Source of the DNA: an uncultured virus (IMG/VR IMGVR_UViG_3300009008_000030)
Taxonomy: Duplodnaviria > Heunggongvirae > Uroviricota > Caudoviricetes
DNA length: 64,000 nucleotides
Strand: one strand, 5' to 3'
IMG/VR virus record: IMGVR_UViG_3300009008_000030
This document shows, piece by piece, positions 722-60,483 of this stretch. Positions within the stretch are counted from its first letter, which is position 1; every line of letters begins with the position of its first letter. Under the pieces are notes generated by a model. The model had not been told where the DNA came from and did no database searches. It saw only the letters and a list, made by a program, of their open reading frames with translations. A program made the translations under genes and the position numbers.

Positions 722-725
722 TGAG

Positions 726-2665: not shown

Positions 2666-2673
2666 GATCTCTC

Positions 2674-6573: not shown

Positions 6574-6582
6574 AGGCTCGAC

Positions 6583-6816
6583 CTAGCGGCGGCTGCGGCT
6601 GCGGCGGCCTCGATTGGAATGGCCTGCCATTGAGGTGCCGGGAGGACCACCCGCCTGTTCCCAGGCCATAGCTTCGTAGACGCCACCCAGGTGACGGCGG
6701 GCGCGAGAGCCCATGTGCTGCTTGCCATAACGCACCTTGAGACCCGACTTCTCGTAACCGTAGAAGGCGAGAGCGCCTAGACCCATGAAGGCGATGTTGT
6801 TAAGCCACTTTCCCAT
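6583..6816 (-). CDS. Small membrane-anchored protein ending in NRGRRSRSRR
   Basis: N-terminal hydrophobic segment IAFMGLGALAFYG; RBS upstream. Confidence 0.7.
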   Translation of the reverse strand: MGKWLNNIAFMGLGALAFYGYEKSGLKVRYGKQHMGSRARRHLGGVYEAMAWEQAGGPPGTSMAGHSNRGRRSRSRR

Positions 6817-12730: not shown

Positions 12731-13486
12731 TTGACAAAGAAAGCAAACTCTGATCTCGCCATCGCCTACATTCGGGTCTCGACCGACGACCAACACCTGG
12801 GACCGGAGGCCCAGCGCCAGGACTGCGAAAAGTGGTGTATACGCCACGAGGTCAAGCTCCACTCTGTTTTTACGGACCAGGGCGTGTCTGGTGGAAAGGG
12901 TCTCGACTCCAGCGGGACCGCTCTCGACCTCACCAAGCGCCCTGCGCTGATGGAGGCGATCTCACAGATGCGGGAAGTGGGTGCTGGGATCTTACTGGTG
13001 GCCAAGCGGGACCGACTCGCCAGGGACGCGATGTTGGCCGCCATGCTTGAGCGGCTCTTGGCCAAGACCGGAGCGGTGGTGCGCTCGGCAGACGGCGTAG
13101 CTGGAGGCGACACCCCGGCAGATCGCTTCCAAGCTCAGATTCTCGATGCCGCCAGCGAGTACGAGCGGGCGCTCATCCGTGCCAGGACCGCCGCTGCGCT
13201 GGCCGTCAAGCGCCGCCGGGGGGAAAAGACAGGGGGAGACACACCCTTTGGCTTCCGCGCCGTTCCTGATGCCTCTGGTACGCTCCTGCTGGTCGAGGAC
13301 GCAGGGGAGCAGTGGGTCATGGCCTACATCGAGACTGCACGGCGGGCTGGCCTGTCCTACGCTAAGATCGCCAAGAGGCTCAACGCAGAAGGGATCTCAT
13401 GTCGCGGAAGCCGCTGGCATACGACGACGGTGGTTCGCCTGTACAAGCGGCAGGTGGCTAAGCGCCTAGCGCCCGCTCTCATCTGA
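12731..13486 (+). CDS. Serine recombinase (resolvase catalytic domain plus short recombinase domain)
   Basis: YIRVSTDDQ with catalytic Ser, DQGVSG, RPAL, KRDRLARD, SEYERALIRART, and C-terminal LSYAKIAKRLNAEG...RWHTTTV. Confidence 0.93.
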   Translation: MTKKANSDLAIAYIRVSTDDQHLGPEAQRQDCEKWCIRHEVKLHSVFTDQGVSGGKGLDSSGTALDLTKRPALMEAISQMREVGAGILLVAKRDRLARDAMLAAMLERLLAKTGAVVRSADGVAGGDTPADRFQAQILDAASEYERALIRARTAAALAVKRRRGEKTGGDTPFGFRAVPDASGTLLLVEDAGEQWVMAYIETARRAGLSYAKIAKRLNAEGISCRGSRWHTTTVVRLYKRQVAKRLAPALI

Positions 13487-38610: not shown

Positions 38611-38873
38611 TGTCCATTCGTCAGTACGTCATGGTTGAGTGGAGAAGTGCCGTTGTCTTTGGTAAGGGGCACAGCCAAGATCTCTCCTGCCAGCCCGCCC
38701 AGGAAGTACCCTGCGGCACCTCCCATCCAACAGGGGCCACCTAGCCTACGATTCAGCTTGCATCCATAGATGGTCCCGGCTATCGCCCCTGTTACCCCTA
38801 AGATCAAGGGAGGAATATCTATGGGGATGCCCTGGTCTTGGGCCTCGGCAGCAGCGAGAACGGCACGGAACAT
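38607..38873 (-). CDS. Small glycine-zipper membrane protein
   Basis: Two Gly-rich hydrophobic segments. Confidence 0.6.
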   Translation of the reverse strand: MFRAVLAAAEAQDQGIPIDIPPLILGVTGAIAGTIYGCKLNRRLGGPCWMGGAAGYFLGGLAGEILAVPLTKDNGTSPLNHDVLTNGQ

Positions 38874-39502
38874 CAGACTCCCCTCACATCATCGAAGATT
38901 AACTCTGCTGCTCGATCTGACCACACGCCATACTCCGCAGCGCGGTAATGAACACCATCACGAGTTTGGAGATCATAGGTGAGAGGCATCGAGTCGTGCC
39001 ACTCCACGTTCAAGGTCGGGAGCATTTCGGACTGCCACTTGGCGATCTTGTCTCGATTCGGCATCAAGTGGGCTTTCTCTCTCTCGCTCTTAGACGGGCC
39101 GAACCAGATGATCTTACGCACCCCAGCCGCCTTCGCCAAACCCACAAACCGTTGGAGATAATCCTTGTAGTTGCTCTCGTTGCGGGCCATGTCGTTGGCT
39201 CCGAGGGCCACGACCAATAACTCCGGCTGAGTCGCCGCTAACTGTCGCTCTAGCTCCCCTGTGTCCACATACCACTTCACGGTCTTGCCCCGGTTACCTG
39301 CCACGCTGGCGCTCATGCCCGCCTCTTGCAGCTTGATTCCCAGCCGCCCGCCAAAGGTCCACGCCGCCTCGCTGTGAGAATCCCCCACCACCAGCCCCCG
39401 ATGGTAGGCCGGGAGAGCTACGGCACCCCCTCGCGGGATGAGCGCCGCTGCGAGTGCCAGGGCACCGAGGCCGATCAAGATCCCAGGATGCACTATACAC
39501 AC
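38873..39502 (-). CDS. SGNH/GDSL hydrolase with N-terminal TM, paralog 1
   Basis: VGDSH, LGAND and DGVH catalytic blocks. Confidence 0.88.
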   Translation of the reverse strand: MCIVHPGILIGLGALALAAALIPRGGAVALPAYHRGLVVGDSHSEAAWTFGGRLGIKLQEAGMSASVAGNRGKTVKWYVDTGELERQLAATQPELLVVALGANDMARNESNYKDYLQRFVGLAKAAGVRKIIWFGPSKSEREKAHLMPNRDKIAKWQSEMLPTLNVEWHDSMPLTYDLQTRDGVHYRAAEYGVWSDRAAELIFDDVRGV

Positions 39503-40299
39503 CCTTCGTAGCCGTAAGTAGCGCCCTGCACCTCATCGAAGATCACCGGAGCAGCGCGGGAGGCCCACACGCCGTACTCCGCTGACTTGAAGTGAATCCC
39601 GTCGTTCGTTGGGAGGTCGGCTGTCATGGGGATAGAGTCGTGCCATTCCACGCCTAGCGGCACCAGCACTTGGCTCTGCCACTGAGCGACTTGTTGGCCG
39701 CCTGGAATCAGGTGTTGGTCATCCCTGTCGAACTTGGACGGCCCGAACCAGATGATCTTACGAACCCCAGCATCCTTCGCGATCTGAACAAACTCAGCCA
39801 GAACAGCGAGATACTGCTCCTGGCGCTGAGGGAAAGGCGCTAGCTTATGCTCCCCTGAGTGCGAGTAGCCGTCCACAATCCCAAGCAAGGCGTCGTTGGC
39901 TCCCAAAGCCACGATGAGAAGATCAGGCTGGAAGTCGGACAGAGCTTCTTTCAAGGTGCCGCTTCCCCTCCCTGGTCGCGGCAACAGAGCCGGATAGCGC
40001 CCGCTCACAAACCAAGGTGCGCCTCGGCCACCGTGGGCCACGATCTGAGTGGGGATGCCCGCGTCGTTGAGCATCTTCCCCAAGCGCCCGCCAAAGCCCC
40101 AGGACGGGCGGCTGTGTGAGTCGCCTATAACCATCCCGCGCTGGTAGGTCACAACCTCAGCCGCGCTCTCTCCACGAGTAAGCGCGAAGGTCAACAGCGC
40201 CGCTGCGCCTAGACCCATCCATACCCCAGGATGCACTACCAGTCCTCTCCGTACCTGTTCGCCATAGACGGGGCTGGGGAAGGCCCACTGCGGAACCAC
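39493..40299 (-). CDS. SGNH/GDSL hydrolase with N-terminal TM, paralog 2 (likely GTG start at 40236)
   Basis: IGDSH, LGAND and DGIH; shares KIIWFGPSK and VEWHDS with paralog 1. Confidence 0.88.
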   Translation of the reverse strand: MVPQWAFPSPVYGEQVRRGLVVHPGVWMGLGAAALLTFALTRGESAAEVVTYQRGMVIGDSHSRPSWGFGGRLGKMLNDAGIPTQIVAHGGRGAPWFVSGRYPALLPRPGRGSGTLKEALSDFQPDLLIVALGANDALLGIVDGYSHSGEHKLAPFPQRQEQYLAVLAEFVQIAKDAGVRKIIWFGPSKFDRDDQHLIPGGQQVAQWQSQVLVPLGVEWHDSIPMTADLPTNDGIHFKSAEYGVWASRAAPVIFDEVQGATYGYEGCV

Positions 40300-41141
40300 A
40301 TGAAAGCTCCGATCCCCAACAAGGCCACGCCGCCGATTAAGAGACCGCCTCGCGGGGTCAACGCCTTCGCGCTCAGCGCCGTGAGCAAACCCTCATCGCC
40401 ATTCTCGGTGCGGGTGTCGGTGGTAGCTACCCCCCCTGGAGGGGTGTAGCTCGATGTGCCTCGCCTACGTCCAGACGACGAACCACGGGCCTTCCAACCA
40501 GGGCAATACTCGTCCTTTTCGGCAGTCGTCAGGGTGCTGGCAACATCGGTCTGAGTGTAGGTAGAGCCGATCAGCATCCAAAGCCCATCGGTCAACTGAC
40601 CATCCCTGGTGAGCTTCTGGACGTACTGAGTAGGTAGATCGGCGGTCATTCCGACTCGTGTGCCGAGGTACTCCCTGGCCACGGCCTTGGTAGCCCTCCG
40701 AGTATCGTCTCCGTAGTCACCATCGACGCAGTAATCGCCAATCCCGAAGCCTTGGCGAACAAGGAAGCGTTGCCACTTCTTAACATCGCTTTGGCTTCCC
40801 GTCCTGGGACCTAACAGAATGTCGCCCGCCAGTGCCTCGGGGTGACTCCAATCCACAGAGTCCAAAGCTACCGATGAGAACGCCCTAGAGGGAATCGCGC
40901 CGTACTGTGCGGCCTCTTGCATGGTGTAGGGATGGGGGTAGGTGGCCCCAGGAACGCCCAGAGTGGCTTCTGCGGCCTGTTTGTTGCCTAGACCCGGTGG
41001 AAGCGCGTAGCCGCCCTCTACGGCGGCCCTGGTGGCGCTCATGGCGCTCTGATAGACCTCCTGGGTAGGGGTCGGCAGGTCCGGTGAGGCCGGGTTAGGC
41101 GGGACCATGTACTGGCCGTAGATCTTGTACCAACTACTCAT
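40236..41141 (-). CDS. Peptidoglycan-binding-domain protein with C-terminal TM
   Basis: DVKKWQRFL...VDGDYGDDTRRA; C-terminal GGLLIGGVALLGIGAFMWF. Confidence 0.75.
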   Translation of the reverse strand: MSSWYKIYGQYMVPPNPASPDLPTPTQEVYQSAMSATRAAVEGGYALPPGLGNKQAAEATLGVPGATYPHPYTMQEAAQYGAIPSRAFSSVALDSVDWSHPEALAGDILLGPRTGSQSDVKKWQRFLVRQGFGIGDYCVDGDYGDDTRRATKAVAREYLGTRVGMTADLPTQYVQKLTRDGQLTDGLWMLIGSTYTQTDVASTLTTAEKDEYCPGWKARGSSSGRRRGTSSYTPPGGVATTDTRTENGDEGLLTALSAKALTPRGGLLIGGVALLGIGAFMWFRSGPSPAPSMANRYGEDW

Positions 41142-41150
41142 GGCGCTCTC

Positions 41151-41675
41151 CTACCATTCCATCCCTGCCTGCCAAGCAGGTAGCGAAGGGTACAGCCCTC
41201 TGTACTCAAGTTCTTCCACGATCTTAAAAAACAAAAACGACCCCGGCTTACTACCTGACTCGGTAGCGATCACCTCCCAGAGCTTTCGCTTCTTGGCAGC
41301 GGTGTAAGGGGGAGAGACAGGCACATCACCGTCGCTCTCAAGGGAATCTACAAAGTCCTCGATCCATTCATCATCTTCCGCAGAACGGCGGCCTCGGGCA
41401 GAGCTTCCTGCCTTGCGGGCCATCTCGCGGGCCAGTGTACGCGCCCTTCGCTTGGTGGTAGCGAAGTCCCACGTCGTATTGTCACTTGGGTCAACCGCTA
41501 TGATGTACTGATCGAACTCCCAATCGAGATAGATGGGAATCCCCTTGACGGTCTCGACGTAATCTCGGCCTTCCTTCAACAACCACCTATCCACAGCCCG
41601 GCGGCCTCGACCACGCGCAGCCCCGCCGACCCGGCATCGGGTGAACTGTCCTCGGCGGTTGCGGCAGCTACTCAT
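41151..41675 (-). CDS. RGRRA-linker modular protein with Cys-basic leader
   Basis: MSSCRNRRGQFTRCR...ARGRGRRA...GSSARGRRS. Confidence 0.8.
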   Translation of the reverse strand: MSSCRNRRGQFTRCRVGGAARGRGRRAVDRWLLKEGRDYVETVKGIPIYLDWEFDQYIIAVDPSDNTTWDFATTKRRARTLAREMARKAGSSARGRRSAEDDEWIEDFVDSLESDGDVPVSPPYTAAKKRKLWEVIATESGSKPGSFLFFKIVEELEYRGLYPSLPAWQAGMEW

Positions 41676-41856
41676 GTCGATCTCCTACTTTCTTGCGATT
41701 GGGGGTCAAGGCCCAGGTGACGGCGGCACGGAGACCCTCAGCGAGCGCAGCCCCAGCAAGGCCCGTTACCTCGGGGCGAACGCGCTCAAAGGCCGCAGAT
41801 GCAGCCTCCTTGGCCTTTTGGCCTTTTTCGTCCACCGAAATATCCTCGTCAGTCAT
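41668..41856 (-). CDS. Small hypothetical protein
   Basis: 62-aa ORF overlapping the next start. Confidence 0.5.
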   Translation of the reverse strand: MTDEDISVDEKGQKAKEAASAAFERVRPEVTGLAGAALAEGLRAAVTWALTPNRKKVGDRHE

Positions 41857-41906
41857 ACCCTATCCCTCGCGTCGTCTGTGCCCTGTGCGAAGCCTCTAGC
41901 GGCGTC

Positions 41907-42761
41907 TCAGAAGCCTCCGCGCTTATACCACTGAGCGGCGTTTTTTCGGTTCATCAGAGACCACAGAACCCCTCGCTCTGCTGCATTAGGCTTAGTGCGG
42001 CGAATACTCACATACTTCATATCGCTACGGTTGCGAGCGTTCTGGGCCACAACCTCAGCCTCACGCAGACTTTTTACCGGGAGAATGACCTTGTTCTTCT
42101 TGCCCCTTGCTTTGCCCCATCCCGACATGAAGGAATCGGTAGCTGTGACGTAGCCCCATGCAGACGGGATCTCCTCGGCGCTGGTGACGATGGCGGCGCG
42201 GCGGCCTCGGGCTGCACTACCCCTCTCACCCTTCTCTACGAGCTTGATCAGCTTTCGATGGTCAGTCCATGCTCTGCGAAGCTCAGGGGTATCCTTGAGT
42301 CTCCCTGCGTCAAGCAGTTGCTTGGCATAGACTCTGGTTCGGAGAATGGTGGTTCGCCAATCTCCGTCCCATTCCCACTTAACGGTAGGGGCTCGCCTCC
42401 CTTGCATGGCGCGGCGGCCTCGACCACGGCTCAGGCTTTGGAAATACTTACGGTGTTTGATCGCTCGACCTTTGGCCTGCGCCCGCGTCTTGAAGCCGCT
42501 GCCTCTCTTGACCACCTTCGATATTACATAGCGACCGTCAGGTTGCGGCTCACTGGTAGAGATGTTCTCAGTGATGACGAACCCAAAGGTTCCAGTCGGT
42601 TCCTTCTTTGTGCGCCAGCTATATAGCGGCACATCGTGGTAAAGCCGAGGGGTCAAGGGGTTGAGGGGAGGTGCGCCGTCAGCGCGGCGGCCTCGACCAC
42701 GGCTCAGGCCATAGGCGGCTGCGGCTCCGACTGCGGCCATTCCTAGCTTGGCGTAGCTCAT
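41907..42761 (-). CDS. Leader-bearing RGRRA polyprotein, 3 modules
   Basis: MSYAKLGMAAVGAAAAYGLSRGRGRRA; ATGA overlap with the upstream gene. Confidence 0.88.
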   Translation of the reverse strand: MSYAKLGMAAVGAAAAYGLSRGRGRRADGAPPLNPLTPRLYHDVPLYSWRTKKEPTGTFGFVITENISTSEPQPDGRYVISKVVKRGSGFKTRAQAKGRAIKHRKYFQSLSRGRGRRAMQGRRAPTVKWEWDGDWRTTILRTRVYAKQLLDAGRLKDTPELRRAWTDHRKLIKLVEKGERGSAARGRRAAIVTSAEEIPSAWGYVTATDSFMSGWGKARGKKNKVILPVKSLREAEVVAQNARNRSDMKYVSIRRTKPNAAERGVLWSLMNRKNAAQWYKRGGF

Positions 42762-43354
42762 AGTAGATCCCACCCCTCTTGTATCTTGTTCAGTGCAGCC
42801 AAGACGTTCTCAGGAGACCCCTTTAGGCGCTTACTCTCCTTGATCCAAACGATAACTGCGGGGTCGTTGGTTGAGTCAGAAAAGTTGATAGCCAGAGAAC
42901 CAATCCACGCAGATCCAGTCCTGCTCTTTTTGTCGAACCTGAGCCTGATGCCTCTGGCGCTGTATTTTTTCCTAAGTAGGGCAGCGAACTGCTCTGCTTC
43001 CCCGACATACCCATTAGCGCGGCGGCCTCGGGCTGTACTACCTCCCGCATCTTCCCAATCATGGTACTCCTGCAAGGAGATAGAGGGTTTGCCCCCAGCA
43101 GCCGCGAGAATCCTCTTGGCTTCGTGCTTGTAGCCTTCCGCTAGAGAGGGATCGAAAGACATCCCTCCGCTCTCTATGTCTTTCAACATGCGGTGAAGCT
43201 CTCTAATCCCTGGCGCACCCCCTCCGAAAGCGTCTGAGTAAGCCTGAGATCTCCCAAGCTCAAAGTTACTCTCGTCGCGGCGGCCTCGACCACGGCTCAT
43301 GCCATAGGCTGCTGCGGCTCCAAAAGCGGCCATTCCTAGCTTGGCGTAACTCAT
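42758..43354 (-). CDS. Leader-bearing RGRRA polyprotein, 2 modules
   Basis: MSYAKLGMAAFGAAAAYGMSRGRGRRD...STARGRRA; AGGAG RBS. Confidence 0.88.
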   Translation of the reverse strand: MSYAKLGMAAFGAAAAYGMSRGRGRRDESNFELGRSQAYSDAFGGGAPGIRELHRMLKDIESGGMSFDPSLAEGYKHEAKRILAAAGGKPSISLQEYHDWEDAGGSTARGRRANGYVGEAEQFAALLRKKYSARGIRLRFDKKSRTGSAWIGSLAINFSDSTNDPAVIVWIKESKRLKGSPENVLAALNKIQEGWDLL

Positions 43355-43374
43355 CTCGTTCTCCTACCCTTCCA

Positions 43375-44517
43375 TCAGTCCCAGGATATGCCAGCAGCTT
43401 TCATGTCCCGCTTGAAACCCGCCCGTAGCTTCGGCAATCGCAGCTTGAGCCACCGATCAAGAGCCGCAGGGTCTTTAGACATGATTTTTCCAACATCAGC
43501 ACTCTTGTCGCTGGGAAGCGCCCCCCACACCACCGTGGACTTGAAGTGCGCCTTGTGGCCTTCCCTAGCCCAATACTTCGCGTTAGGTCGATAGTGCATA
43601 GGCCCCGACGAAGGGCTGAACAGGTGCCACTTGATGAGCGGGCGCAGCTTCGGGAAGTAGCGCCTCACCATGCCGTGGAGTTGGCCCCCCGACACTTCTC
43701 GACCGTTGGGGGCGTATCCGGTTCCCGTAATAGAAAAGTAGGGTTCCCGGTTCCCCCTAAGAAAGTTCATTCCATACTCAGCTTGGAACTTGCCTTTTCT
43801 GGAGTACCCGGTGTCTGCGGGCACCTTCTCGGTTTTCTTCCTTCGGCTGGACCCGGCGGCCATGACCCGGCGGCCTCGGGCAGAGCTTCCTTTTGGCTTC
43901 ACCATGTAGGAGTGGAGTTTTCTTAGGTCAGAGTCGGAGAGGGAGTCGAGGTATACGACCGCCGTGGAACCTTCCCAGCCCATGTGGTCATGGGCGGCGG
44001 GGCCGATCATAATGCCGATTCGCCCCCATCCCTTGTCACTTCTGTAGTCAGGGTGCTTGCTCGACCAAAGCTCCTTCATCAGCTTGGTACGCGAAGATGT
44101 CGCAGCGCGGCGGCCTCGGGCGCGGCGACCTCGGTCCCTCACTAGATCATTGGGATAGCCGCCCCACCAGTCGATAATCCCTCTGAGCGACCCTGGAGTG
44201 ATTCGTCCCAGGAAGTCGTCCGGTTGGTCGGTGATAGCCAATACTGAGCCTATCGAGGTGAACACCTCGTCGTCGGGATAGGGATGGACGAAACTCAACC
44301 GCTTGTACACCATAGCGCCTCCCCCATCCTCTGGATTGGGAATGAAGTAGTCCTGCCCGATGGTTACGGAGGCGTTGTCGATGAACTCCCCTTCGGGGGT
44401 GTCGATGCTGTGAGGGCCTGATCCAAGACGGATTCCAGCGCGGCGGCCTCGACCACGGCTTAGGCCGTAGGCGGCTGCGGCTCCAAAAGCGGCCATTCCT
44501 AGCTTGGCGTAACTCAT
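43375..44517 (-). CDS. Leader-bearing RGRRA polyprotein, 3 modules
   Basis: Same leader, then RGRRARGRRA and GSSARGRRV. Confidence 0.88.
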   Translation of the reverse strand: MSYAKLGMAAFGAAAAYGLSRGRGRRAGIRLGSGPHSIDTPEGEFIDNASVTIGQDYFIPNPEDGGGAMVYKRLSFVHPYPDDEVFTSIGSVLAITDQPDDFLGRITPGSLRGIIDWWGGYPNDLVRDRGRRARGRRAATSSRTKLMKELWSSKHPDYRSDKGWGRIGIMIGPAAHDHMGWEGSTAVVYLDSLSDSDLRKLHSYMVKPKGSSARGRRVMAAGSSRRKKTEKVPADTGYSRKGKFQAEYGMNFLRGNREPYFSITGTGYAPNGREVSGGQLHGMVRRYFPKLRPLIKWHLFSPSSGPMHYRPNAKYWAREGHKAHFKSTVVWGALPSDKSADVGKIMSKDPAALDRWLKLRLPKLRAGFKRDMKAAGISWD

Positions 44518-44657
44518 GTGAGAGGCTTCGGGCGACCGCGAACGAGGGTGACGAGGCCGCTAATGGCCCCACTGGCCAGGAAGAAGGTCATCCAGGGGTG
44601 TTCGTAGATCCAACCCTCGTGACACACAGGGCCTTCGGCGCGTTGTCCATATCTCAT
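44514..44657 (-). CDS. 47-aa membrane peptide (below the ORF-track cutoff)
   Basis: AGGAG RBS; MRYGQ...PWMTFFLASGAISGLVTLVRGRPKPLT; ATGA overlap. Confidence 0.65.
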   Translation of the reverse strand: MRYGQRAEGPVCHEGWIYEHPWMTFFLASGAISGLVTLVRGRPKPLT

Positions 44658-44666
44658 GTCGATCTC

Positions 44667-45008
44667 CTAGTAGGCGAGCAGCCGTGCCTTCTTGGCACTA
44701 CGGTACTCTCCAGGCGTGGCAGCAATAGTCATACTGGCTTCTTGAGCATTGGGAAAGACGGACAGGAGTGCGCTACGCCCACCGTACCCCTCGTCAACAA
44801 AGCCCAGGAACTTGCCGCTGCGGTCATGGACGTACCAGCCTCGACGGGGGTTTCCGTTTGTATCGTGGCCTGCGTTGATCTTCTGCGCCCATACCTTGTT
44901 GCGCGAGATAACGGGGATGCCTTTGTACCGCCTACGCTCAGCAGGACCGCGAGCCGCACGGCCCCGGCACTTCGTAAACTTCCCTGCTTTCGTTCTGCAA
45001 CTGTCCAT
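44667..45008 (-). CDS. Single-module protein with Cys-basic leader
   Basis: MDSCRTKAGKFTKCRGRAARG resembles the leader of 41151..41675. Confidence 0.75.
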   Translation of the reverse strand: MDSCRTKAGKFTKCRGRAARGPAERRRYKGIPVISRNKVWAQKINAGHDTNGNPRRGWYVHDRSGKFLGFVDEGYGGRSALLSVFPNAQEASMTIAATPGEYRSAKKARLLAY

Positions 45009-45018
45009 CTTGATCTCC

Positions 45019-45453
45019 CTATCTAAGCTCTTGCGGAATGTACCAGGGTTGAGGCTGGTGGAACACCGCCGACTCTACCCGCAAGCGAGATTGCTCCTGG
45101 GCCTCGGCCCTGGCCTTGGCCACGGCCTTGACCTCACTATCCCTTGCAGCAAACGCCAACTTGATTTTCTGCACCGCTGCGCTGGGGTCTTTCGACCTAC
45201 GCCAACTGCGGGTGCCCGATGAGAAATGCGACTTGAACCGCTGCGCTCCCAGCTTATCCACCCACGGCTTCGGCACTCCCACCCACACCACATGCCCCGC
45301 CGGGATATTCCCCACAGCGGCCACAGACGGCCCTCTGAGGGCCTTGAGCGAGCCCTCCCTGGTCAGGGTGTACACGAGCGCGTCTGTGGCCTCTACGGCG
45401 CGCAGAAAGGCCCGGTCATGGGCTGAGAACACAATGGCAGCGACAGGGGTCAT
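45019..45453 (-). CDS. Hypothetical protein
   Basis: ORF inside the array, without leader or linker. Confidence 0.6.
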   Translation of the reverse strand: MTPVAAIVFSAHDRAFLRAVEATDALVYTLTREGSLKALRGPSVAAVGNIPAGHVVWVGVPKPWVDKLGAQRFKSHFSSGTRSWRRSKDPSAAVQKIKLAFAARDSEVKAVAKARAEAQEQSRLRVESAVFHQPQPWYIPQELR

Positions 45454-45459
45454 AGGGCC

Positions 45460-45798
45460 TCAGTAGATGTACTGCGCCATTCGGCGCACCATGTTGTGTT
45501 CTGCTAGGTCTAGGCCGCGAGGCCCCAGGATTTCTTCGATCTCCCAATCATTCTGTAGAAACTTGTCTCCTACGGCTTCTCCCTCGGGATCGAAGATCTC
45601 CAGGCCCACATACCCCATCCTCAGATTGGTAATCAAGACGTAGAGGTAGCCGTCGTCTCCCTTGAATACGTCGATGCCGTCGTTGGTCCCTGCGCCTATG
45701 GGGAGGGCATGACCATTTACCAAGACCTTGGTGGACGGCCCGTAGTGCCCTGGTTGCCAATACTGTTCCTTGCGGAAGTCGATGGAGCGAAGTTTCAT
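45460..45798 (-). CDS. Hypothetical protein
   Basis: GGAGG RBS and ATGA overlap; no leader or linker. Confidence 0.7.
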   Translation of the reverse strand: MKLRSIDFRKEQYWQPGHYGPSTKVLVNGHALPIGAGTNDGIDVFKGDDGYLYVLITNLRMGYVGLEIFDPEGEAVGDKFLQNDWEIEEILGPRGLDLAEHNMVRRMAQYIY

Positions 45799-46616
45799 CG
45801 CCGCCTCCTAGCCCGTCGCCCACTCATGGCGAACTCCACGTCCTCGACTGAGACATACATATCGCTGCCTCGGTCATAGTGTCGGCCCTTTCGGGGGTCA
45901 TAGTACAAGATCTTGCCACTTCGGTAGCGGAACGGCCCCTCCATGCCAGGGATGGGCGGCGGCAAGTCCTCGGCGGGCCTAGACACCACACCTTGCTTCT
46001 CCCATGCCTGCGCCACCAAAGCTCGCTTCTCGGCCTTCGACATAGCGCGGCGGCCACGACCAAACTCCCATCCAGAATAGCCTCCAAACTCGCTAAACTC
46101 CTCAAAGCGGGCGATAGCTCGATCTAAGGCCGCTCTTGCCTTGGGGGTGTTGGGTCGCAGTCCTTTGTGGCTTCGATAGAAATTGGTGAATCGGCTCTCT
46201 ACTCGGTATTGCTTGTCCTTCTTGTCAAAGACCACCATCACCTTGCCCCACGGCTCAAAGTGGCTAGATCTCAAGATCTCCACATCTCCCGCAGCGCGGC
46301 GGCCTCGGTCAGAAAAATCCCACCCGTATTTCTCGCGCACTTGCCCGATAAGAAGGTACGGGGGAGTACGCATATCAGCTTCGATTGCATCAGCGACAGC
46401 ACGAGCTTCTTTTGCAGTACGATAGCGGGGAGGGGTAACGTCAAAGGTTCCGGTGGTCCGTTCCTCAACCGTCACATAATAACGACCTTCTTTGCTACGG
46501 GCCAACGACACCACGGGATAGATACCAGGGCCTCGGGCACGACGGCCTTGACCACGGCTCAGTCCGTAGGCTGCTGCGGCTCCGATTGCGGCCATTCCTA
46601 GCTTGGCGTAGCTCAT
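45795..46616 (-). CDS. Leader-bearing RGRRA polyprotein, 3 modules
   Basis: MSYAKLGMAAIGAAAAYGLSRGQGRRA, then DRGRRA and GRGRRA. Confidence 0.88.
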   Translation of the reverse strand: MSYAKLGMAAIGAAAAYGLSRGQGRRARGPGIYPVVSLARSKEGRYYVTVEERTTGTFDVTPPRYRTAKEARAVADAIEADMRTPPYLLIGQVREKYGWDFSDRGRRAAGDVEILRSSHFEPWGKVMVVFDKKDKQYRVESRFTNFYRSHKGLRPNTPKARAALDRAIARFEEFSEFGGYSGWEFGRGRRAMSKAEKRALVAQAWEKQGVVSRPAEDLPPPIPGMEGPFRYRSGKILYYDPRKGRHYDRGSDMYVSVEDVEFAMSGRRARRRR

Positions 46617-47473
46617 CTCGGCACCCTGCCGTCCACAAGAGGAACGAGACGATAGCCCGTATACCTTTTCGCCTCAGCCAGAGTGCGGAAGTGTGGCCCC
46701 TTGCGGCTCCAACCCCAAGACCGACTCTGGAACAGGTAGGAGTTATGATAGACCGCCCAGCGCGTGGCCTCCCGGCCCTTCGACCAGACTCGCTCCTTCT
46801 TGATCAAGACGGAGCCGCCGTCTGAGGGAGTTCTCGACCACAGGTAGCTACCGTCTCCCTGACGCTTGAAGTCGGGCTTGTGGGCTGCGCGGCGGCCTCG
46901 GGCAGAGTGTCCCGCCTTGCGGGTAACGTGCAGCACCCACATTCCCTTGCCTTCGTAGTAGGCTTCTACCTGGGTGACTCCAGGGATACTCAGGCCAACC
47001 TGTTTAGCCAGGGGAGCGAGTCGGTCCTTCTGCGCTTCATATTCGTAGTCGTCCAAACCGTCGATGTTGGGACCGTGCAATTCGTACTTATTGGGGCCTG
47101 CTGGCTCCAAGCTATCGAAGGCGTCCATATTTCTACGACCTCGGCGGGTGGCGTGGTGTGCCTGATATGCCTCAAGGTGGTGAAGCGCCTCGGCTAGTTG
47201 GTGGCGAAAGTCTCTGCCTATCTCAACGGTCGCGGCTGCGGCTCGCTCGGCCTCGTGGTCGTAGTTCGTGTGCGTCGGGTCGGCCTCGGGGAGCCACATC
47301 GCATCGATGGTGGCTTGCGCCCCGGCGATCTCGCAGTCGAGGCGGGAGATCGCGTCTCGGAGGGACTGTGGCGAAGAGTGGTCAATCTGGCTGGCGCGGC
47401 GGCCTTGACCACGGCTCAGTCCGTAGGCTGCTGCGGCTCCGATTGCGGCCATTCCTAGCTTGGCGTAGCTCAT
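46613..47473 (-). CDS. Leader-bearing RGRRA polyprotein, 3 modules
   Basis: Same leader (TGATG overlap), then RRGRRN and HSARGRRA. Confidence 0.88.
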   Translation of the reverse strand: MSYAKLGMAAIGAAAAYGLSRGQGRRASQIDHSSPQSLRDAISRLDCEIAGAQATIDAMWLPEADPTHTNYDHEAERAAAATVEIGRDFRHQLAEALHHLEAYQAHHATRRGRRNMDAFDSLEPAGPNKYELHGPNIDGLDDYEYEAQKDRLAPLAKQVGLSIPGVTQVEAYYEGKGMWVLHVTRKAGHSARGRRAAHKPDFKRQGDGSYLWSRTPSDGGSVLIKKERVWSKGREATRWAVYHNSYLFQSRSWGWSRKGPHFRTLAEAKRYTGYRLVPLVDGRVPR

Positions 47474-48993
47474 CAAAGGTACCTCTGCACGATGGGCCAC
47501 AGAGCGTCTTTATGCTCCGATAGGTCAGCGAGCGTCATGCTAGGTGCGTCAGGGAGCGCCTGAGCCAACTCCTCGACCAGCTTCCTGGCTGCTGGCTTTC
47601 CCCGGACGGTACCGAGGGCAATCCCGCTCGGCAAGTGCGTCACCGACCAGTAAAGGCGACCACTTTTCCACATGCCAAAGCCAGAGTCTCCGTAGATTTC
47701 CCCGTCCTTGTCGAGCCTTTCCCCCTGCGGGCTTGTGAGCGAGAGGGTGCCGGGTCGCCACGCAGACCTGCTTGCGCTTTTCTTGCGCGGCGTGACCACG
47801 GCAGAGCGGCGCAGGGTCAACCAGCCACGCTTGTACCCTACGGTCAAGGGGAGGTCATGGAGATAGGGATCTACCGCTCTCAACGACCGCTTGCTCTTGA
47901 GATTCCGCAAGATGGTGCCTGCGGCGGCCTCGGCCTGGGATTTTGTCAGAGCGTCGGTCCAGACGAACCAGCCCTGCCCCCGCCACAACAAGATGCGTCC
48001 GTCCTTCGCCTTCTTGGCCCCGGCTGGCTTGAGCAGGAGAGAAGCAGAGAGGTGTTCCTCCAGCCCACTGTACTCACGGCCTGCCCCCATCGCGGACTGG
48101 TGAGCATCGTAGTCGCGTCCCTTGTAGGGTTCGTGATGCTCCTGCCGCCGACCGATAGCGCGGCGGCTTTTGGCAGATCGATAGGTTCCATCAGAGCGCA
48201 GACGCTCTTCTCGATCCATGTTCAAACAAGCAGCCACAGCCCGACGCTCATCCCAACCCTCGCCACGCACCTTGCCGGAAATGCACTTGCTTACACGCTT
48301 GTTGTGCTTGCGGCCTCGGGCACTCCGGCCCTTCTTGAGCAAACCCAGCGCCTCGGCGCGGCGTACCGTCTTGGTTGCGTAGGCCCCACGCTTTACCCCG
48401 GTCGCTGCGTCATACCCGGCCTTCCACTCAATGCCGTGACGTTGGCTGATCTTACCCCGCCTGTACGCAGTCGAGGCCGCGACGATCTTCTTTGCCTTCT
48501 TCCCTGCCGCAAACCCAGCGCGAAAGTCGTCGTCCCATGCAGCTTTCCACTGTATGGGCGAACCGAAATCATCGACTTCGTATCCGGCAGGTCCAGCACG
48601 GCGGCCTCGGGCCTCGTGCCCTCCCAGCCGTGCCCAAGGGTCTCTGTGGTAGCTCCTCGGTGGTGCGTGGTGAAAGGTTACCTCCTTCCTGGCCGTGTCA
48701 AAGACCTCGACGGTGCGCGTGTCGTCCTCTGCGATCACCTCGTCGGCCAAGTCCCACGCAGCTTGCTGATCATCGGTACGCAGGATCACCTCGGGACCGC
48801 TGTAGTCAAGTCCGTAGCGTTGCTGATCGCCCATCACCGACATGCGAACGTGATAACGCGAGGGGCTGATCTTCTTGCGGCCCCTGTTCTGGCCCCAGCC
48901 CTGGCGCATCTTTTCTTCGGACCTCGCCGCCCAGGCTATGAGCCCGACTCCGGCGAGAGGCGCGATCCAACGTCCTGCGCTCATCACGACCAC
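47473..48993 (-). CDS. RGRR-linker polyprotein with variant hydrophobic leader
   Basis: MSAGRWIAPLAGVGLIAWAA, then NRGRKK, EARGRRA and SARGRK. Confidence 0.85.
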   Translation of the reverse strand: MVVMSAGRWIAPLAGVGLIAWAARSEEKMRQGWGQNRGRKKISPSRYHVRMSVMGDQQRYGLDYSGPEVILRTDDQQAAWDLADEVIAEDDTRTVEVFDTARKEVTFHHAPPRSYHRDPWARLGGHEARGRRAGPAGYEVDDFGSPIQWKAAWDDDFRAGFAAGKKAKKIVAASTAYRRGKISQRHGIEWKAGYDAATGVKRGAYATKTVRRAEALGLLKKGRSARGRKHNKRVSKCISGKVRGEGWDERRAVAACLNMDREERLRSDGTYRSAKSRRAIGRRQEHHEPYKGRDYDAHQSAMGAGREYSGLEEHLSASLLLKPAGAKKAKDGRILLWRGQGWFVWTDALTKSQAEAAAGTILRNLKSKRSLRAVDPYLHDLPLTVGYKRGWLTLRRSAVVTPRKKSASRSAWRPGTLSLTSPQGERLDKDGEIYGDSGFGMWKSGRLYWSVTHLPSGIALGTVRGKPAARKLVEELAQALPDAPSMTLADLSEHKDALWPIVQRYL

Positions 48994-50417
48994 CAGATGT
49001 TTCCACCTTCGCCTTGCGAGAGGTCTTTAATGGCCTCGACCCACTCATCGTAGGTCTTGACCGAAGGGGAGAGAGCATAGACGCTGCTGCTGTACCAAAA
49101 GTCGGTCTCACCAAAAGGCTGGGGATGGCCCTCAACTGCGTCTACATAGCGGTGCCAGCCGCCATAGTAGGCGGGCATTTCTGACATCCTTGTAACCACG
49201 ATCTCATAGCCATAGCCGTTCTTGAGCAGCCACTTGTTGAGTTGCTTCCACGTTCTCGGGGCCTTACCCCCGTCAGCATGACGGGCGCGGCGACCTCGGA
49301 ACTTCTCTTTCTGGCGGTACTTGGCCTGGGCTTTGGGATCGAGCAGTTCTTGCAGGGTGGTTTCGCCTCGGGTGACGGGGCTTGCTTCCCACCCGATCTC
49401 GCGCTTCGGAGACCCTTTGCGGCGACCTCGGGCAGAGCGGCCTTTGGGAGCCTCAATCACGATGGACAAAAGCTGGTCTGGGGTGCCCTTCATGGCATCT
49501 ACCCAATGTCCAGGCTCTCCCTTCTTGAAGGTGCCCGCAGGCACCCACGCTTCGGTCAGCAACCACGCGATCTCATCCTTGTCGAGATTCCACTGGTGAT
49601 CCCATATCCTGGGAGAAACTCGATAGAGAGTTCCCCGGTTATGCGAAAGACCAAAGGTCGCGGGAAAGCGGTTTATAGCTGCTTGGATCGCCTTGTCTCG
49701 GGCCTTGCTCTCTCGGCCCAAGCGGGAGTCAGAATAACTCGTGTCTCGTCGTCTTGGCCTTGACCCAGGTAGGGATACTCTCTTGGCGGCGGGCTTCTTA
49801 GCAGGACGACGGGCACGGCGGCCTCGGGCAGAGCTTCCCTTCTTCGCGCTGCGGCTATAGACCTCTTTCATCCCCCCACCCGGCAAGACACGCTCAACTG
49901 TGCCTCGCTCGGCGTCTCCGGTGCGGATAGAGTGATCGACCGACTCCACAGCATTGATGTTGCCCTCGCGCCCATACTCGCTCCAGCGGGTAGGGGAGAT
50001 CCCCTTTCCGTAGTGCAAGGTCACGATGTAGCGGTCCTGATGCTTAGCTCGGCGGCCTCGGGCAGAGTGGCCCCAGCCGGGTGTGGTCGCATAGTAGTGC
50101 TTGCGAGCCGCATCTACAGCGGCCTTGAGGGTCTTGAAGCGCCTCTTGAATGTTGTGGACTCCCACCCATCGTCGCCACGGAAGGTCACCCTCACCGCCC
50201 ACTTTCCTTGGGAGGAATCAACTCCGTAGGAAGGGCCTTCTGCGGAGTCCCAACGATACTTAGATTCGCCTTGCCGAGTCTGCCGACGCCAGTGCTTGGC
50301 ATCGGGCATCGGATCTCGCCTGCCTCGGGCAGATTGGCCTTGACCCTCGCTCAGGGCATAAGCGACGAAAGCCAAACCTCCTAGCGCCAAAACAGGCTTA
50401 ATGTCTCCAGCGGCCAT
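48984..50417 (-). CDS. RGRRA-linker polyprotein with variant hydrophobic leader, about 5 modules
   Basis: VLALGGLAFVAYALSEGQGQSARGRRD plus four more linkers. Confidence 0.85.
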   Translation of the reverse strand: MAAGDIKPVLALGGLAFVAYALSEGQGQSARGRRDPMPDAKHWRRQTRQGESKYRWDSAEGPSYGVDSSQGKWAVRVTFRGDDGWESTTFKRRFKTLKAAVDAARKHYYATTPGWGHSARGRRAKHQDRYIVTLHYGKGISPTRWSEYGREGNINAVESVDHSIRTGDAERGTVERVLPGGGMKEVYSRSAKKGSSARGRRARRPAKKPAAKRVSLPGSRPRRRDTSYSDSRLGRESKARDKAIQAAINRFPATFGLSHNRGTLYRVSPRIWDHQWNLDKDEIAWLLTEAWVPAGTFKKGEPGHWVDAMKGTPDQLLSIVIEAPKGRSARGRRKGSPKREIGWEASPVTRGETTLQELLDPKAQAKYRQKEKFRGRRARHADGGKAPRTWKQLNKWLLKNGYGYEIVVTRMSEMPAYYGGWHRYVDAVEGHPQPFGETDFWYSSSVYALSPSVKTYDEWVEAIKDLSQGEGGNIWWS

Positions 50418-50419
50418 GA

Positions 50420-52233
50420 CTACCTCCTAAAGATCGCAACAAGCAACAGCAACCCGACCAACCCGCCACTAATGCCGACACCTGCGGCTGCTGCGGGAGG
50501 CAAGCTCGCCCACCAGCCTTTTTCTTCTTCGCCGTTACCATTACCCCGCGTTTCGTCCCAGGCGTCATGCTCAGCCTGAGCAACCTCCTGCTCGATGCTT
50601 GGAAGTCCCTGCTGCGCTCGCCGCTCGTTCTCGGCGTCGTGGGCTTCCTGGGCCTCTCGCTCGCGCTCCATATCTTCTGAGAGATCCTCAAAGAACCCCC
50701 CATAGCTGGTCGCGAGACGGTAGTGATCTCCAGGGCTCAGGCGATACATCAGACTACCTTCCGCTGAGCTTGTAGACACCAAAGGTCAGGCCAGAGACAC
50801 CCACCGCTACAGCACTGACCTTGATCCAAGGAGCCAAGCCAGCCCACCAGCCTTCGTCCTCGGCCTCGTCATCAGAGAAGTCATCCTCGTACTCGTCGCC
50901 GTTCCCCGAGGTGTCACCCCCACCGTTGCCAGAGGTTCCACCGCCACCGTTCCCCGAGGTGTCGCCTCGCCCGTGCTTACGCCAGGGGTTAAACAAGCTG
51001 GGGTCAGCAAGAGAGATAGTGGATCTCCCTAACAACCCTGGATCAACTCCGTAGCTGACGTTCTGTTGCAAGTGGTACAACTCAGAGGGGGTATAGGTTC
51101 GCATAGTCTTATCTTCCTATCAGTTTCCAAAGTAAAAATGCGCCTAGACCCACGCCCCCGACCCCCATACTCACCTTGGCCCAGGTGGGGAAGTGGAAGG
51201 GCTCGACTTTCTGTAGCCATGCTTCAAGATCTTCGGGAGAGGCCCTGCTGCGGTAGTGCCCTAGCTCGACCATGCCTCGGATCGACCAGTTAGCTTCTTC
51301 CCACTTCGCCTTGGTTTCAGGCTCCAGGGTGTCGAGCCACGCATCAAACTGCTCGGAGGTCATGTTCTTGGGAGAAGGCTGAGGGAGACCTCCGGTGGTC
51401 TGAACTCCGAGATCTCTCATACGAACCGCTCGTGGATCTGCCACCAAGGTTCCGTAATGAGACGCGGCGACCGTCCCGGTGGCAGGGTGGTCCCGAAACC
51501 AGTTAAGCCACTGAGGCAAGGTCCGTACTGGAGGGCTTCGCCGGGTAAAGGGCCGCCGATAGGTGATGCCTGCGAGGTTTCCCGGCACCCCTGACCACTG
51601 AGAGACGTGGGATGGATGCTCAAACGGGTCAAACCCACCCACAGCGTCTCCAAACTTCAAGTGAACGCCGTGAGCAAGCCCACCCACAGGAACTCTACCC
51701 ACGCCCCCAGGCCCAGCAAACCAACCGATGATCTCCAGCGGTTGGTTTCCCCTGTGTCTAAGCCGGATACTAGGTTTCCCGCCGTTTAGTGTTGAAGTCG
51801 CCCTGTATCGCTTACCAAGAGAGGGCACATCTACCCACAGGGGGCGCTTTACTCCATAGCTTCCCAGCAGGTGACCGGAGTAGCGCCTCCACCGACCTGT
51901 TCGTACCCTACGGTAGCGACCTGCACTCCTCGGTCCAGCAGGTCTTGCTCCGTAGCTTACCGGGACGCCGCTGTATTCCTGCCAGTGTGAGATCATGTTG
52001 AGCTACCTCCGCGTGAAGCGCACCGCCAGGAGCGCCCCCACGATAATGCCAGTAGTGAGCGTGAGAGCATAGGAGGTCAGAGAGCCTCCGGTGCCATTGT
52101 TGGTCTCGGCCCCGAACTGAGCATTGGGGGCGAGCATCAGCCCGTAGGCTGGGATGCCCTTGTTGCCTACCGGGCTAGACGGCTTCGCGTAGCTCTGGAG
52201 GGTGCTGGCGAGGTTGGGGTCAAGGGCTGGCAT
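50420..52233 (-). CDS. Four putative virion membrane proteins with C-terminal TM (50420-50782, 50754-51104, 51109-51996, 52003-52233)
   Basis: Each ends in a Gly-rich hydrophobic helix plus basic residues and carries a YG motif near the N-terminus. Confidence 0.7.
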
Positions 52234-52239
52234 CCTGCA

Positions 52240-59391: not shown

Positions 59392-60483
59392 ATGTGCGCC
59401 GATACCAACAAACTTCGTAGGCGGTTCTGCTCGGCCTGCGCTGCCGTAGTCCGTAGCGGATTGGCGGCCTGCCCCTCGTGTGGCAACACCGCCATGACCA
59501 CGCGCTGGGTGCGCCCAACCCGGCAATCCCGTGCGGCCTCTGTAACGCCCGCATTTCCCTTCCACGGGGTCCAGTGGCCCGAGGGGGTGACCGTCGCTCT
59601 GTCAGCGTCTTTCGGTGTAGGAAAATCCTCATCTGCTGCACTGCTCGGCAATCCCGGCTCAGATGGTAGTCCTCCCATGCTGAAAAACTGGATCACAACA
59701 GAACAAGACCCCACTCCGGTCCAGGCGATGTTCAAGCGGCTCAAGGTGCCGTGCCCGCAGATATGGGCGGCTGACCCTCTCGACCCTGTGGGCTCGGTCA
59801 AGCGAGCGATTCGTACTCAGGTAACGGGGGCCGGGGCCTTGACCGTTCTGGACTCCACTACCCCTCTCGGCATCGACGGTGCGGTGGAGACAATGAACTT
59901 CATTGTGCAGGACTGTCTCAACACAGGGCGACGAGCCATGATGATCTCGCAGCAGAACAAGCAGAAGGAAATCCTCGGCAAGATCGCTCTGGCCTTCATC
60001 CCTGACATTGTGATTGAGATTGACGTTGACCAGTTTGGGCGGCGGCGTCTGCGCGTCTCTAAGAACCGCCACGGGCCTCCCAGCACTACCTACTTCCAGT
60101 TTGGAGAAGAAGGCAAAATCTTGCAGCCCGACTTCACCACCGTCGCTCATAGCGTCGAAGGGGCAGTCATGGACATGCAACTCATCCCCTACGGCCTCCA
60201 TATCAGGGGCGGCAAGTGGGACGGCTTGCTGAGCGCCCTGGACACCCACAGGCTCCTTCCTGACCTGCCAGGGGTAGCCTCAGCCGCTATCAAGACGGGG
60301 GCCACCGCCTGCGGCTTCCTAGCCCCTCCTGATGAGCCCGCTCGCAAAGCTCTCGCAGAATCCCACGGCTTGCGCTGGCTCGATCTTGAAGAAGGAGTAG
60401 ACCTCCTAGCAGATGCACGGCGGCGAGGGCGACAGCCCGCTGCTCCCCCTGAACTCGACCCCCATGAGGATCTTGCACTATGA
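59392..60483 (+). CDS. RadA/Sms-like RecA-family ATPase, divergent and without a recognisable Lon-like domain
   Basis: N-terminal CxxC...CPSC zinc finger, Walker A FGVGKSS, Walker B VLDS, and KNRHG matching the RadA KNRFG motif. Confidence 0.75.
   Translation: MCADTNKLRRRFCSACAAVVRSGLAACPSCGNTAMTTRWVRPTRQSRAASVTPAFPFHGVQWPEGVTVALSASFGVGKSSSAALLGNPGSDGSPPMLKNWITTEQDPTPVQAMFKRLKVPCPQIWAADPLDPVGSVKRAIRTQVTGAGALTVLDSTTPLGIDGAVETMNFIVQDCLNTGRRAMMISQQNKQKEILGKIALAFIPDIVIEIDVDQFGRRRLRVSKNRHGPPSTTYFQFGEEGKILQPDFTTVAHSVEGAVMDMQLIPYGLHIRGGKWDGLLSALDTHRLLPDLPGVASAAIKTGATACGFLAPPDEPARKALAESHGLRWLDLEEGVDLLADARRRGRQPAAPPELDPHEDLAL

Follow-up and report, generated by a model that had tools for sequence, protein, structure and literature searches.

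Small modules joined by a uniform basic linker in the polyproteins of a marine phage-like element, with linker DNA as a probable in-frame crossover point

The window analysed here is a 64,000-nucleotide (nt) stretch of an uncultured virus placed in the Caudoviricetes (IMG/VR record IMGVR_UViG_3300009008_000030), a phage-like element in which about a dozen minus-strand open reading frames (ORFs) form a family of polyprotein genes at positions 2-6816 and 41151-50417, eight of them lying in 41151-50417. These genes encode a conserved leader and a chain of about 37 modules held together by a short linker, and the reading that we favour, as probable though far from certain, is that the linker DNA provides the homology for crossovers and that the linker peptide is probably a cut site. 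An initial annotation, made from the sequence alone, had proposed that the linker DNA works as an in-frame crossover point, and this proposal has strong but indirect support from the fixed codons of the linkers, from the borders of the modules, from an insertion/deletion (indel) that separates two related proteins, P0040 and P0003, and from the points at which environmental contigs diverge from the window.

Linker peptide, linker codons and DNA repeats

The majority of the family genes open with a Gly/Ala-rich hydrophobic leader that runs into R-G-R-G-R-R, and linkers are spaced every ~66-132 residues (Table 1). The logo of the 29 internal linkers reads G-[RHS]-[SR]-A-R-G-R-R-A and is asymmetric, with four conserved positions upstream of RGRR versus one downstream. 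Several genes terminate in a linker plus only 4-5 residues. Neighbouring genes overlap stop to start as ATGA or TGATG (for example at 42758-42773, 46613-46616 and 47473-47477), an arrangement in which one small indel or crossover could fuse or split adjacent polyproteins.

For codon choice we counted 35 R-G-R-[RK] linker sites in 11 genes and compared them, by binomial tests, with background usage taken both from the same genes minus their linkers and from the other window genes. The first Arg is encoded by CGA in 31/35 sites (background 15-21%; P=1e-17), the Gly by GGC in 31/35 (36-37%; P=3e-10) and the Arg at position 3 by CGC in 26/35 (29-35%; P=3e-6), while upstream the Ala at -1 is GCC in 18/18 (35-40%; P=8e-8) and the Ser at -2 is TCT in 10/12 (17-20%; P=4e-6). 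The claim that linkers usually use the same codons thus holds position by position, and the linker codons lie far from background usage, agreement with which the initial annotation had named as speaking against its proposal. Since distinct Arg codons are fixed at distinct positions of the linker, a general codon bias is excluded as the cause. Synonymous variants (AGG or CGT for CGC, GGT for GGC) leave R-G-R-R intact, AGG for CGC doing so through two nucleotide changes with the Arg still kept, and the more distant relatives retain the peptide motif. Selection on the peptide, likewise proposed at the outset, is therefore borne out, and because the variants preserve the peptide, the identity of the DNA needs an additional cause. 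Met was also seen as the second residue after R-R in 4/29 internal linkers (cores 42411, 43867, 46047 and 47132), compared with 1.9% Met overall (P=0.002, post hoc); in these four the ATG sits ~10 nt past the GAGG formed by CGA-GGC, and the Met could be an internal start or the relic of a formerly separate gene.

The repeats described in the initial annotation were recovered at the DNA level. A 23-bp (base pair) sequence, which reads G-S-S-A-R-G-R-R on the coding strand, occurs in exact copies at 41386-41408, 43868-43890 and 49816-49838, with four further copies at 2-3 mismatches (1375, 46890, 49420 and 50050), the number of matches expected by chance being 0.00 (100 shuffles). A 28-bp direct repeat is exact at 42409-42436 and 42682-42709, bracketing 42437-42681, and is the leader tail of gene 41907-42773, as had been stated. 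Five genes carry closely similar versions of this leader, MSYAKLG, and the tails of the other four match the 28-mer at 86-96%. The leaders are encoded by an 82-nt repeat family that reads MSYAKLGMAA[VFI]GAAAAYG[LM]SRG[RQ]GRR, whose I/Q variant is common to the neighbouring genes 45795-46616 and 46613-47500 and whose F variant is common to 42758-43354 and 43375-44517. Linker variants are local in the same manner: GCCCGAGGCAGGCG (GCC CGA GGC AGG CG) has the three reported copies in gene 2674-4029, at 2897, 3161 and 3503, together with a fourth, overlooked copy at 50317-50330, and CGTGGTCGTGGCCGTCG (CGT GGT CGT GGC CGT CG) has the two reported copies in gene 2-721, at 126-142 and 645-661. As read from the sequence, this clustering of leader and linker variants is the pattern of local exchange or duplication.

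Across the window, the 17-nt linker core GCCCGAGGCCGCCGCGC has 32 matches at up to three mismatches, compared with 1.06 expected and a shuffle maximum of 5, and all 32 lie on the minus strand. As 30/32 are confined to the two polyprotein clusters and 29/32 are in frame as RGRR, we rejected a Chi-like or packaging signal. One out-of-frame copy with three mismatches, at 47919-47935, is read as A-E-A-A-A-G in the 277-aa (amino acid) last segment of gene 47473-48993, and may be what is left of a linker whose frame was lost, or a chance match of the kind of which 1.06 are expected per window.

Modules as exchangeable and autonomous units

Relatives were gathered by word-based protein searches and with HMMER, and BLAST of the window modules against eight of them returned 18 rows, comprising five leader matches and 13 module matches, of which 11 cover at least 94% of the module and stop at linkers. 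The relatives bear window modules at 80-100% identity in different orders and contexts. For example, two modules of gene 43375-44517 recur at 100% identity: the last one (163 aa) in P0002, in which one different module replaces the two upstream ones, and the third (80 aa) in P0003, flanked by other neighbours. P0004 has the last module of gene 42758-43354 at 99% identity (86/86 aa aligned), behind two different modules, and modules 2 and 3 of gene 48984-50417 stand in reversed order in P0033. Modules of the two clusters also mix, as two from gene 726-2336 (w726_m1 and w726_m5) share proteins with modules of the 41-50 kb (kilobase) cluster in P0003 and P0033. P0040 is P0003 minus exactly one 80-aa module, which is itself 100% identical in window gene 43375-44517; the indel is flanked by the direct repeat KGSSARGRRA, and its flanks are ~99% identical. 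The in-frame gain or loss of a module, broken at linkers, that the initial annotation had proposed as a check is thus seen between these two proteins.

Wider scans added no relatives, either in IMG/VR (queried with gene 43375-44517, a degenerate leader pattern, module 49815-50048 and gene 40236-41141) or in JGI metagenomes (queried with gene 45795-46616 and P0036). The 17-nt linker pattern gave at least 120 loci in IMG/VR that were judged to be chance, all 80 displayed having a single match, and the IMG/VR loci with several RGRRA peptides were out-of-frame noise in DNA rich in guanine and cytosine (GC). In the 90% clusters of the window proteins, members of other lengths were explained by alternative start calls or by truncation at contig ends and were not architectural variants.

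At the population level, Logan contigs from four marine runs belonging to four studies were aligned to 41000-50500 at a likeness of at least 85%; such contigs cannot give frequencies, and regions that no contig covers in runs X5-X7 were left out of the evidence. The ends assessed were 18 listed of 99 loose ends and 24 listed joint ends, the latter a subset of the joints. The zone within 16 nt of a linker core, which makes up 11% of the stretch, holds 10 of the 18 listed loose ends (P=6e-6) and 11 of the 24 listed joint ends (P=2e-5), and most of the remaining listed ends fall at gene borders (41150, 44660, 47507 and 48996). X5 and X6 contigs are identical to the window up to 43890/43891, where a copy of the 23-bp repeat ends, and are then unlike it for at least ~255 letters. 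In one X6 contig, 41369 connects to 41597 through 17 other letters, for a net change of -210 nt, and this joint deletes, in frame, the module between both linkers of gene 41151-41675. The junctions of the window itself are confirmed by 100%-identical contigs that run across linkers (records 1, 2, 3 and 8 of X4; records 29 and 30 of X7).

Cutting the chains at the linkers yields the ~37 modules, each of at least 41 aa and mostly of 66-132 aa, among which a single pair shows similarity (31% over 58 aa). No Pfam family was found at E<=0.01 in any of the 11 polyprotein ORFs scanned, and four modules gave hits to small PHROG families (66-190 profile positions) for which no function is known. HMMER with the 477-aa product of gene 48984-50417 against 1.84 billion representative proteins returned 20 proteins at E<=0.001, most of them 68-120 aa long and aligning solely to module 3 (residues 124-201; 49815-50048). 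Nine stand-alone homologues of this module (68-90 aa) align with it end to end; the stand-alone homologues mostly start with Met at or within ~4 residues of the module start and stop a few residues past the last conserved strand, and none has an RGRR tail. When the homologue alignment was supplied, the module was predicted to fold as beta-beta-alpha-beta-beta with a mean predicted local distance difference test score (pLDDT) of 90.1, and its linker tail KKGSSARGRR had a pLDDT of 56 and no secondary structure. Foldseek of this model against the PDB gave nothing at E<=0.001, the top matches being photosystem I subunit D and Top7-like folds (E=0.07), and a single-sequence AlphaFold model of the 380-aa polyprotein was uninformative (mean pLDDT 32.9). 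Judged by sequence comparison and structure prediction together, the modules are shown to be autonomous units, in that one is predicted to fold confidently alone and its homologues exist as stand-alone proteins of 68-90 aa.

Explanations for the linker DNA and the linker peptide

We propose that the 17-28 bp of identity shared by linkers and leader tails would supply the short homology on which ordinary homologous recombination, probably promoted by the phage, could act, and that exchange would take place among co-infecting relatives or among the copies within a single genome. With one orientation and one codon phase, each crossover would swap, gain or lose modules in frame, and recurrent exchange would keep the linker DNA uniform. 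Repeats of 23-28 bp are near the minimal length usable by RecA-type and phage recombination systems, and phage RecA-like and annealing proteins tolerate short, diverged homology. The window itself encodes a candidate of the RecA superfamily (59392-60483) and a PD-(D/E)XK nuclease. The logic applied to CdiA and Rhs proteins, with no homology to them implied, looks for junction DNA that is more conserved than the peptide demands and for relatives that switch whole segments there, and both are found here.

Recombination of this kind is likelier than the integron-like mechanism to which the initial annotation had compared the array, a comparison that did not hold up. No IntI was found among the ORFs scanned, the linkers have no attC-type inverted repeats and no dyad symmetry, and the modules as a rule lack starts and stops of their own, being in-frame segments of long ORFs without intervening stops in which Met follows only 4/29 internal linkers. 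The two enzymes that had been named as possible promoters of shuffling, a serine recombinase and a RadA-like protein, are indeed both encoded in the window, and nothing found ties either of them to the linkers. The former is probably the integrase or resolvase of the phage. The language-model features of the latter, ORF 59392-60483, resemble those of viral KaiC/RadA-type clusters (PF06745, AAA_25; score 0.94, 208 shared features), a resemblance that serves as a lead rather than a family assignment, and phmmer against PDB sequences gave nothing below E=0.06. We give very little credence to a site-specific, integron- or shufflon-like system in which a dedicated recombinase, such as this serine recombinase, would move the modules as cassettes. 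Such a system has in its favour the presence of that gene, a linker site that is short, highly uniform and strictly oriented, and modules that act as discrete cassettes. However, no tyrosine recombinase of the IntI type or of the Phage_integrase family was found among the 111 window ORFs scanned (49 + 62 ORFs in the Pfam scans), and only 1/14 inverted-repeat pairs in 41000-50500 adjoins a linker (I2, 43849-43867), which leaves no attC-like hairpins. The 17-nt core, as read from the sequence, lacks the dyad symmetry about a central dinucleotide that serine recombinase sites require, and more than 30 active direct sites, some of them 40 kb apart and flanking replication genes, would destabilise the genome. 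Moreover, the recombinase gene lies 28 kb from the array on the other strand and looks like that of an ordinary integrase or resolvase. It is also distinctly unlikely that the linker serves two dedicated purposes, with its DNA a signal for a phage recombinase (the RadA/Sak4-like ATPase or the serine recombinase) that actively shuffles cassettes and its peptide a cut site; were this the case, the linker would amount to a 'coding-sequence integron' that makes new polyprotein repertoires at high frequency during co-infection.

Could constraint on the peptide suffice? In that case the identity of the DNA would reflect recent descent by duplication and fusion, selection would place the junctions at linkers and the DNA would have no crossover role, which we consider unlikely. 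For the relatives, the junctions are documented only in protein sequences, the clustering of synonymous variants within single genes fits local duplication, and the internal 28-bp copy of the leader tail resembles a one-off gene fusion. Yet the flanking modules are mutually unrelated, which would call for many fusions rather than one recent duplication, the synonymous sites are uniform over 35 linkers in two clusters 40 kb apart, and the P0003/P0040 indel, with an exact linker repeat at its borders and near-identical flanks, has the signature of repeat-mediated recombination. A function in the RNA, with CGA-GGC yielding a Shine-Dalgarno-like GAGG for ribosome pausing or internal initiation, would agree with CGA GGC being the most invariant part of the linker (31/35 each), with the ATG that follows GAGG in four linkers and with the translational coupling of the array genes through ATGA/TGATG overlaps. 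We hold this to be very unlikely, since 25/29 internal linkers have no ATG there, the conserved GCC, TCT and CGC codons carry no Shine-Dalgarno meaning, the variants in gene 2-721 (CGT GGC) are without GAGG yet keep the peptide, and the Met after the linker is explained equally well as the start-codon relic of a formerly separate gene.

Several observations weigh against our preferred reading of crossover at the linker DNA coupled with cutting at the linker peptide. The placing of the crossover inside linker DNA is inferred from protein junctions and contig break points rather than from the nucleotide sequence of the relatives, and selection that retains only domain-boundary recombinants would likewise put the junctions at linkers. 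The enrichment test rests on the displayed subset (18 of the 99 loose ends). In three linker-to-linker joints the sides measure just 24-30 nt, and such short-sided joints may be the repeated linker aligning to another of its copies, which would mark divergence at a linker and not a specific new adjacency. Some relatives carry decayed linkers, such as KGRSAKGGR and GHGGQRS in P0033. Finally, scans with Pfam, PHROG and NCBIfam revealed no convincing protease family in the 64 kb.

The peptide is most likely a recognition and cut site for a protease, which would cut after R-R and before Ala and so liberate each module as a small protein of its own, comparable to the stand-alone homologues, the hydrophobic Gly/Ala-rich leader serving to tether or target the precursor. 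An asymmetric 9-residue motif placed between freely ordered autonomous domains, together with linkers at gene ends, fits a cut site better than a passive spacer. As a speculative candidate for the processing protease we note P0038, a transglutaminase-core-like protein whose Cys, His and Asp are ordered as in a papain-like triad (judged by eye); its nearest language-model clusters hold small viral proteins of 136-155 aa, a minority of them annotated Transglut_core, and phmmer against PDB sequences gave nothing below E=0.06. A serious alternative, although we think it less likely than not, is that the chains stay uncut, as membrane-tethered multidomain proteins in which the basic linker is a spacer or makes contact with nucleic acid or membrane. 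The failure of the scans to reveal a convincing protease would agree with this, as would the leaders, which by eye resemble membrane helices of weak hydrophobicity with positive charges behind them, and the many membrane-anchored proteins encoded nearby; large unprocessed polyvalent phage proteins are also known, for example the N4 virion RNA polymerase, according to passages of PMC5512222. A passive spacer, however, would not retain an asymmetric 9-residue motif, module order and number vary freely, one module is free-standing elsewhere, and genes that end in a linker and 4-5 residues suggest that the linker is a C-terminal tag of the module upstream.

Relation to known systems and genomic setting

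Proteins or segments bordered by a short conserved sequence are familiar from several systems. The leader of the T4 internal proteins is removed by the prohead protease, and their locus is hypervariable among T-even phages. As described in passages of PMC3012670, the internal proteins IPI, IPII and IPIII are unrelated small proteins that share a short conserved N-terminal leader, and in this respect, of unrelated small units behind a shared leader, the family described here is similar. It differs from them in that the junction is a basic A-R-G-R-R-A instead of ending in Glu (hydrophobic-x-Glu), the leader is hydrophobic and Gly/Ala-rich, and each ORF has many modules; furthermore, the window yielded no recognisable protease or capsid gene of the T4 type. 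In the cassettes of polymorphic toxins, namely CdiA, whose CdiA-CT region follows the VENN motif, and the C-terminal tips and orphan modules of Rhs proteins, a conserved junction peptide and its DNA mark the border at which recombination swaps the segment in frame. Here too a short conserved peptide with conserved DNA borders a swappable segment. However, CdiA and Rhs proteins swap one C-terminal tip plus its immunity gene, whereas in the present chains crossover could occur at any junction, none of the modules is a known toxin and immunity genes are absent.

Polyvalent proteins, for which passages of Iyer et al. 2017 (PMC5512222) describe 2-15 independent domains per polypeptide in mosaic architectures and propose processing by peptidases, likewise combine multiple independent units in one polypeptide of a mobile element. 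Their domains, as presented there, are recognisable enzymes with an embedded metallopeptidase, and the word 'linker' occurs 0 times in the main text of PMC5512222; in contrast, the modules of the window are tiny, have no Pfam family and are joined by one uniform linker with uniform DNA. The conflict-related families from which polyvalent proteins draw their domains were likewise not recognised in any chain by the Pfam scan. Integrons resemble the array as same-orientation series of unrelated mobile units that are each bounded by a repeated element, but they need an IntI tyrosine recombinase, folded attC sites and whole-gene cassettes, whereas the units here are in-frame protein modules. The shufflon of IncI plasmids inverts segments within one genome by means of the Rci tyrosine recombinase and inverted sfx repeats in pilV. 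It has in common with the linkers short intragenic repeats that permit in-frame segment exchange, and differs in that all repeats of the window are direct (32/32 on one strand), no tyrosine recombinase was found in it, and variation is observed from genome to genome. Polyproteins of eukaryotic RNA viruses are cut at dibasic sites, for instance by flavivirus NS2B-NS3 after R-R or K-R and before a small residue. The linkers similarly place two basic residues before a small one and join independent proteins in one chain, but they belong to a double-stranded DNA phage, no chymotrypsin-like protease was detected in the window and cutting is only predicted.

A full-text literature search returned no description of phage polyproteins joined by such linkers. 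What sets the family apart is its basic RGRR junction, its hydrophobic leader, its unrelated and unclassifiable phage lineage and a synonymously homogenised junction DNA that coincides with the borders of indels and swaps. Polyproteins are the rule in many RNA viruses and are hardly described for double-stranded DNA phages. An accessory-gene repertoire arranged as in-frame cassettes, with junctions that double as recombination points, suggests how phages could exchange very small genes without a promoter, a ribosome-binding site or intergenic space for each, and offers a concrete, testable case for a view of long standing, in which phage mosaicism is driven by short conserved sequences at boundaries. 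Were the linker to be cut, it would define a 9-residue site and a matching protease of dibasic specificity, and the chains would constitute a catalogue of about three dozen autonomous mini-proteins, likely host-takeover or anti-defence factors, that could be screened.

The window has a GC content of 55-64%. It is present in marine or seawater metagenome sequencing runs from 14 studies, and the element is known from marine metagenomes alone. Pfam and PHROG scans identified genes for replication and DNA metabolism (a family A DNA polymerase, a D5-type primase-helicase, an SNF2 helicase, a DEAD helicase, a PD-(D/E)XK nuclease and a DnaJ protein) as well as lysis-like genes (an M15 peptidase, two SGNH hydrolases and a peptidoglycan-binding protein). 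Among 50,697 phage records the family A DNA polymerase reaches a highest identity of 29.7%, and megablast of 41000-50500 against the same records gave zero matches. Scans with Pfam, PHROGs and NCBIfam recognised no capsid, portal, terminase, tail or prohead-protease families in the 64 kb, so the structural module is either very divergent or located beyond the window; the longest related contig, of 74,264 nt, extends ~10 kb further, outside the scans for a prohead protease.

Table 1 Polyprotein genes, leader repeats and enzyme candidates of the window
Position	Strand	Feature	Details
2-721, 726-2336, 2288-2665, 2674-4029	-	Second cluster	12 RGRR linkers; 2-721 continues past the window edge
6583..6816	-	Small family member, 77 aa	Hydrophobic leader and one module ending GHSNRGRRSRSRR; immediately upstream of the SNF2 helicase ORF
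12731..13486	+	Serine recombinase, 251 aa	Resolvase N-terminal domain, E=2e-29
41151..41675	-	Gene, 174 aa	Cys-containing leader MSSCR..CR..RGRGRR, two modules; linker cores 41598-41609, 41385-41396
41907..42773	-	Gene, three modules	Linker cores 42684-42695, 42411-42422, 42198-42209; last module matches phrog_5423
42437..42681	-	Module between the exact 28-bp repeats	Internal linker copies the leader tail LSRGRGRRA
42758..43354	-	Gene, 198 aa	Leader and two modules
43375..44517	-	Gene, 380 aa	Leader and three modules
44667-45008, 45019-45453, 45460-45798	-	Three small genes	Without RGRR linkers; interrupt the array
45795..46616	-	Gene, 273 aa	Leader variant ..IGAAAAYGLSRGQGRR, three modules; C-terminal SGRRARRRR
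46613..47500	-	Gene, three modules	MSYAKLG leader from 47473; leader DNA 98% identical to that of gene 45795-46616
47473..48993	-	Gene, 506 aa	Different hydrophobic leader; linker cores 48874-48885, 48598-48609, 48307-48318; long last segment (277 aa) with degenerate linker AKSRRA (48158-48174)
48984..50417	-	Gene, 477 aa	Hydrophobic leader and five modules; linker cores 50316-50327, 50049-50060, 49815-49826, 49419-49430, 49287-49298
42681-42762, 43274-43355, 44437-44518, 46536-46617, 47393-47474		82-nt leader repeat family	85-98% identity
55423..55812	-	P0038, transglutaminase-core-like protein, 129 aa	PF01841, E=9e-5, 23.1 bits versus a cut-off of 23
59392..60483	+	RadA/Sak4-like candidate recombination ATPase	N-terminal zinc ribbon and Walker-A

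Some smaller features of the polyprotein genes and their surroundings complete the description. The true start of gene 41907-42773 is likely the ATG at 42761, which opens the MSYAKLG leader and overlaps the upstream stop as ATGA. The products of genes 41151-41675 and 44667-45008 have in common a non-hydrophobic N-terminus, M-[SD]-S-C-R ... F-T-[RK]-C-R, that looks like half a zinc ribbon. When the SNF2 helicase ORF (within 4030-6816) is read from its GTG start, its first 28 aa end in WRGRR-A (6490-6501), and a core replication enzyme may therefore bear the same junction. Upstream of the array, at 50420-53295, four successive genes (120, 116, 295 and 351 aa) each encode a C-terminal hydrophobic helix followed by basic residues, resembling a tail anchor, and the 116-aa protein among them holds a 24-nt tandem repeat (50894-50974). 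The adjacent SGNH/GDSL hydrolase genes at 38873-40299 are diverged tandem paralogues with 71-74% DNA identity in blocks, and both products have an N-terminal hydrophobic segment; they stand in a lysis-like cluster together with the M15 peptidase and the peptidoglycan-binding protein.

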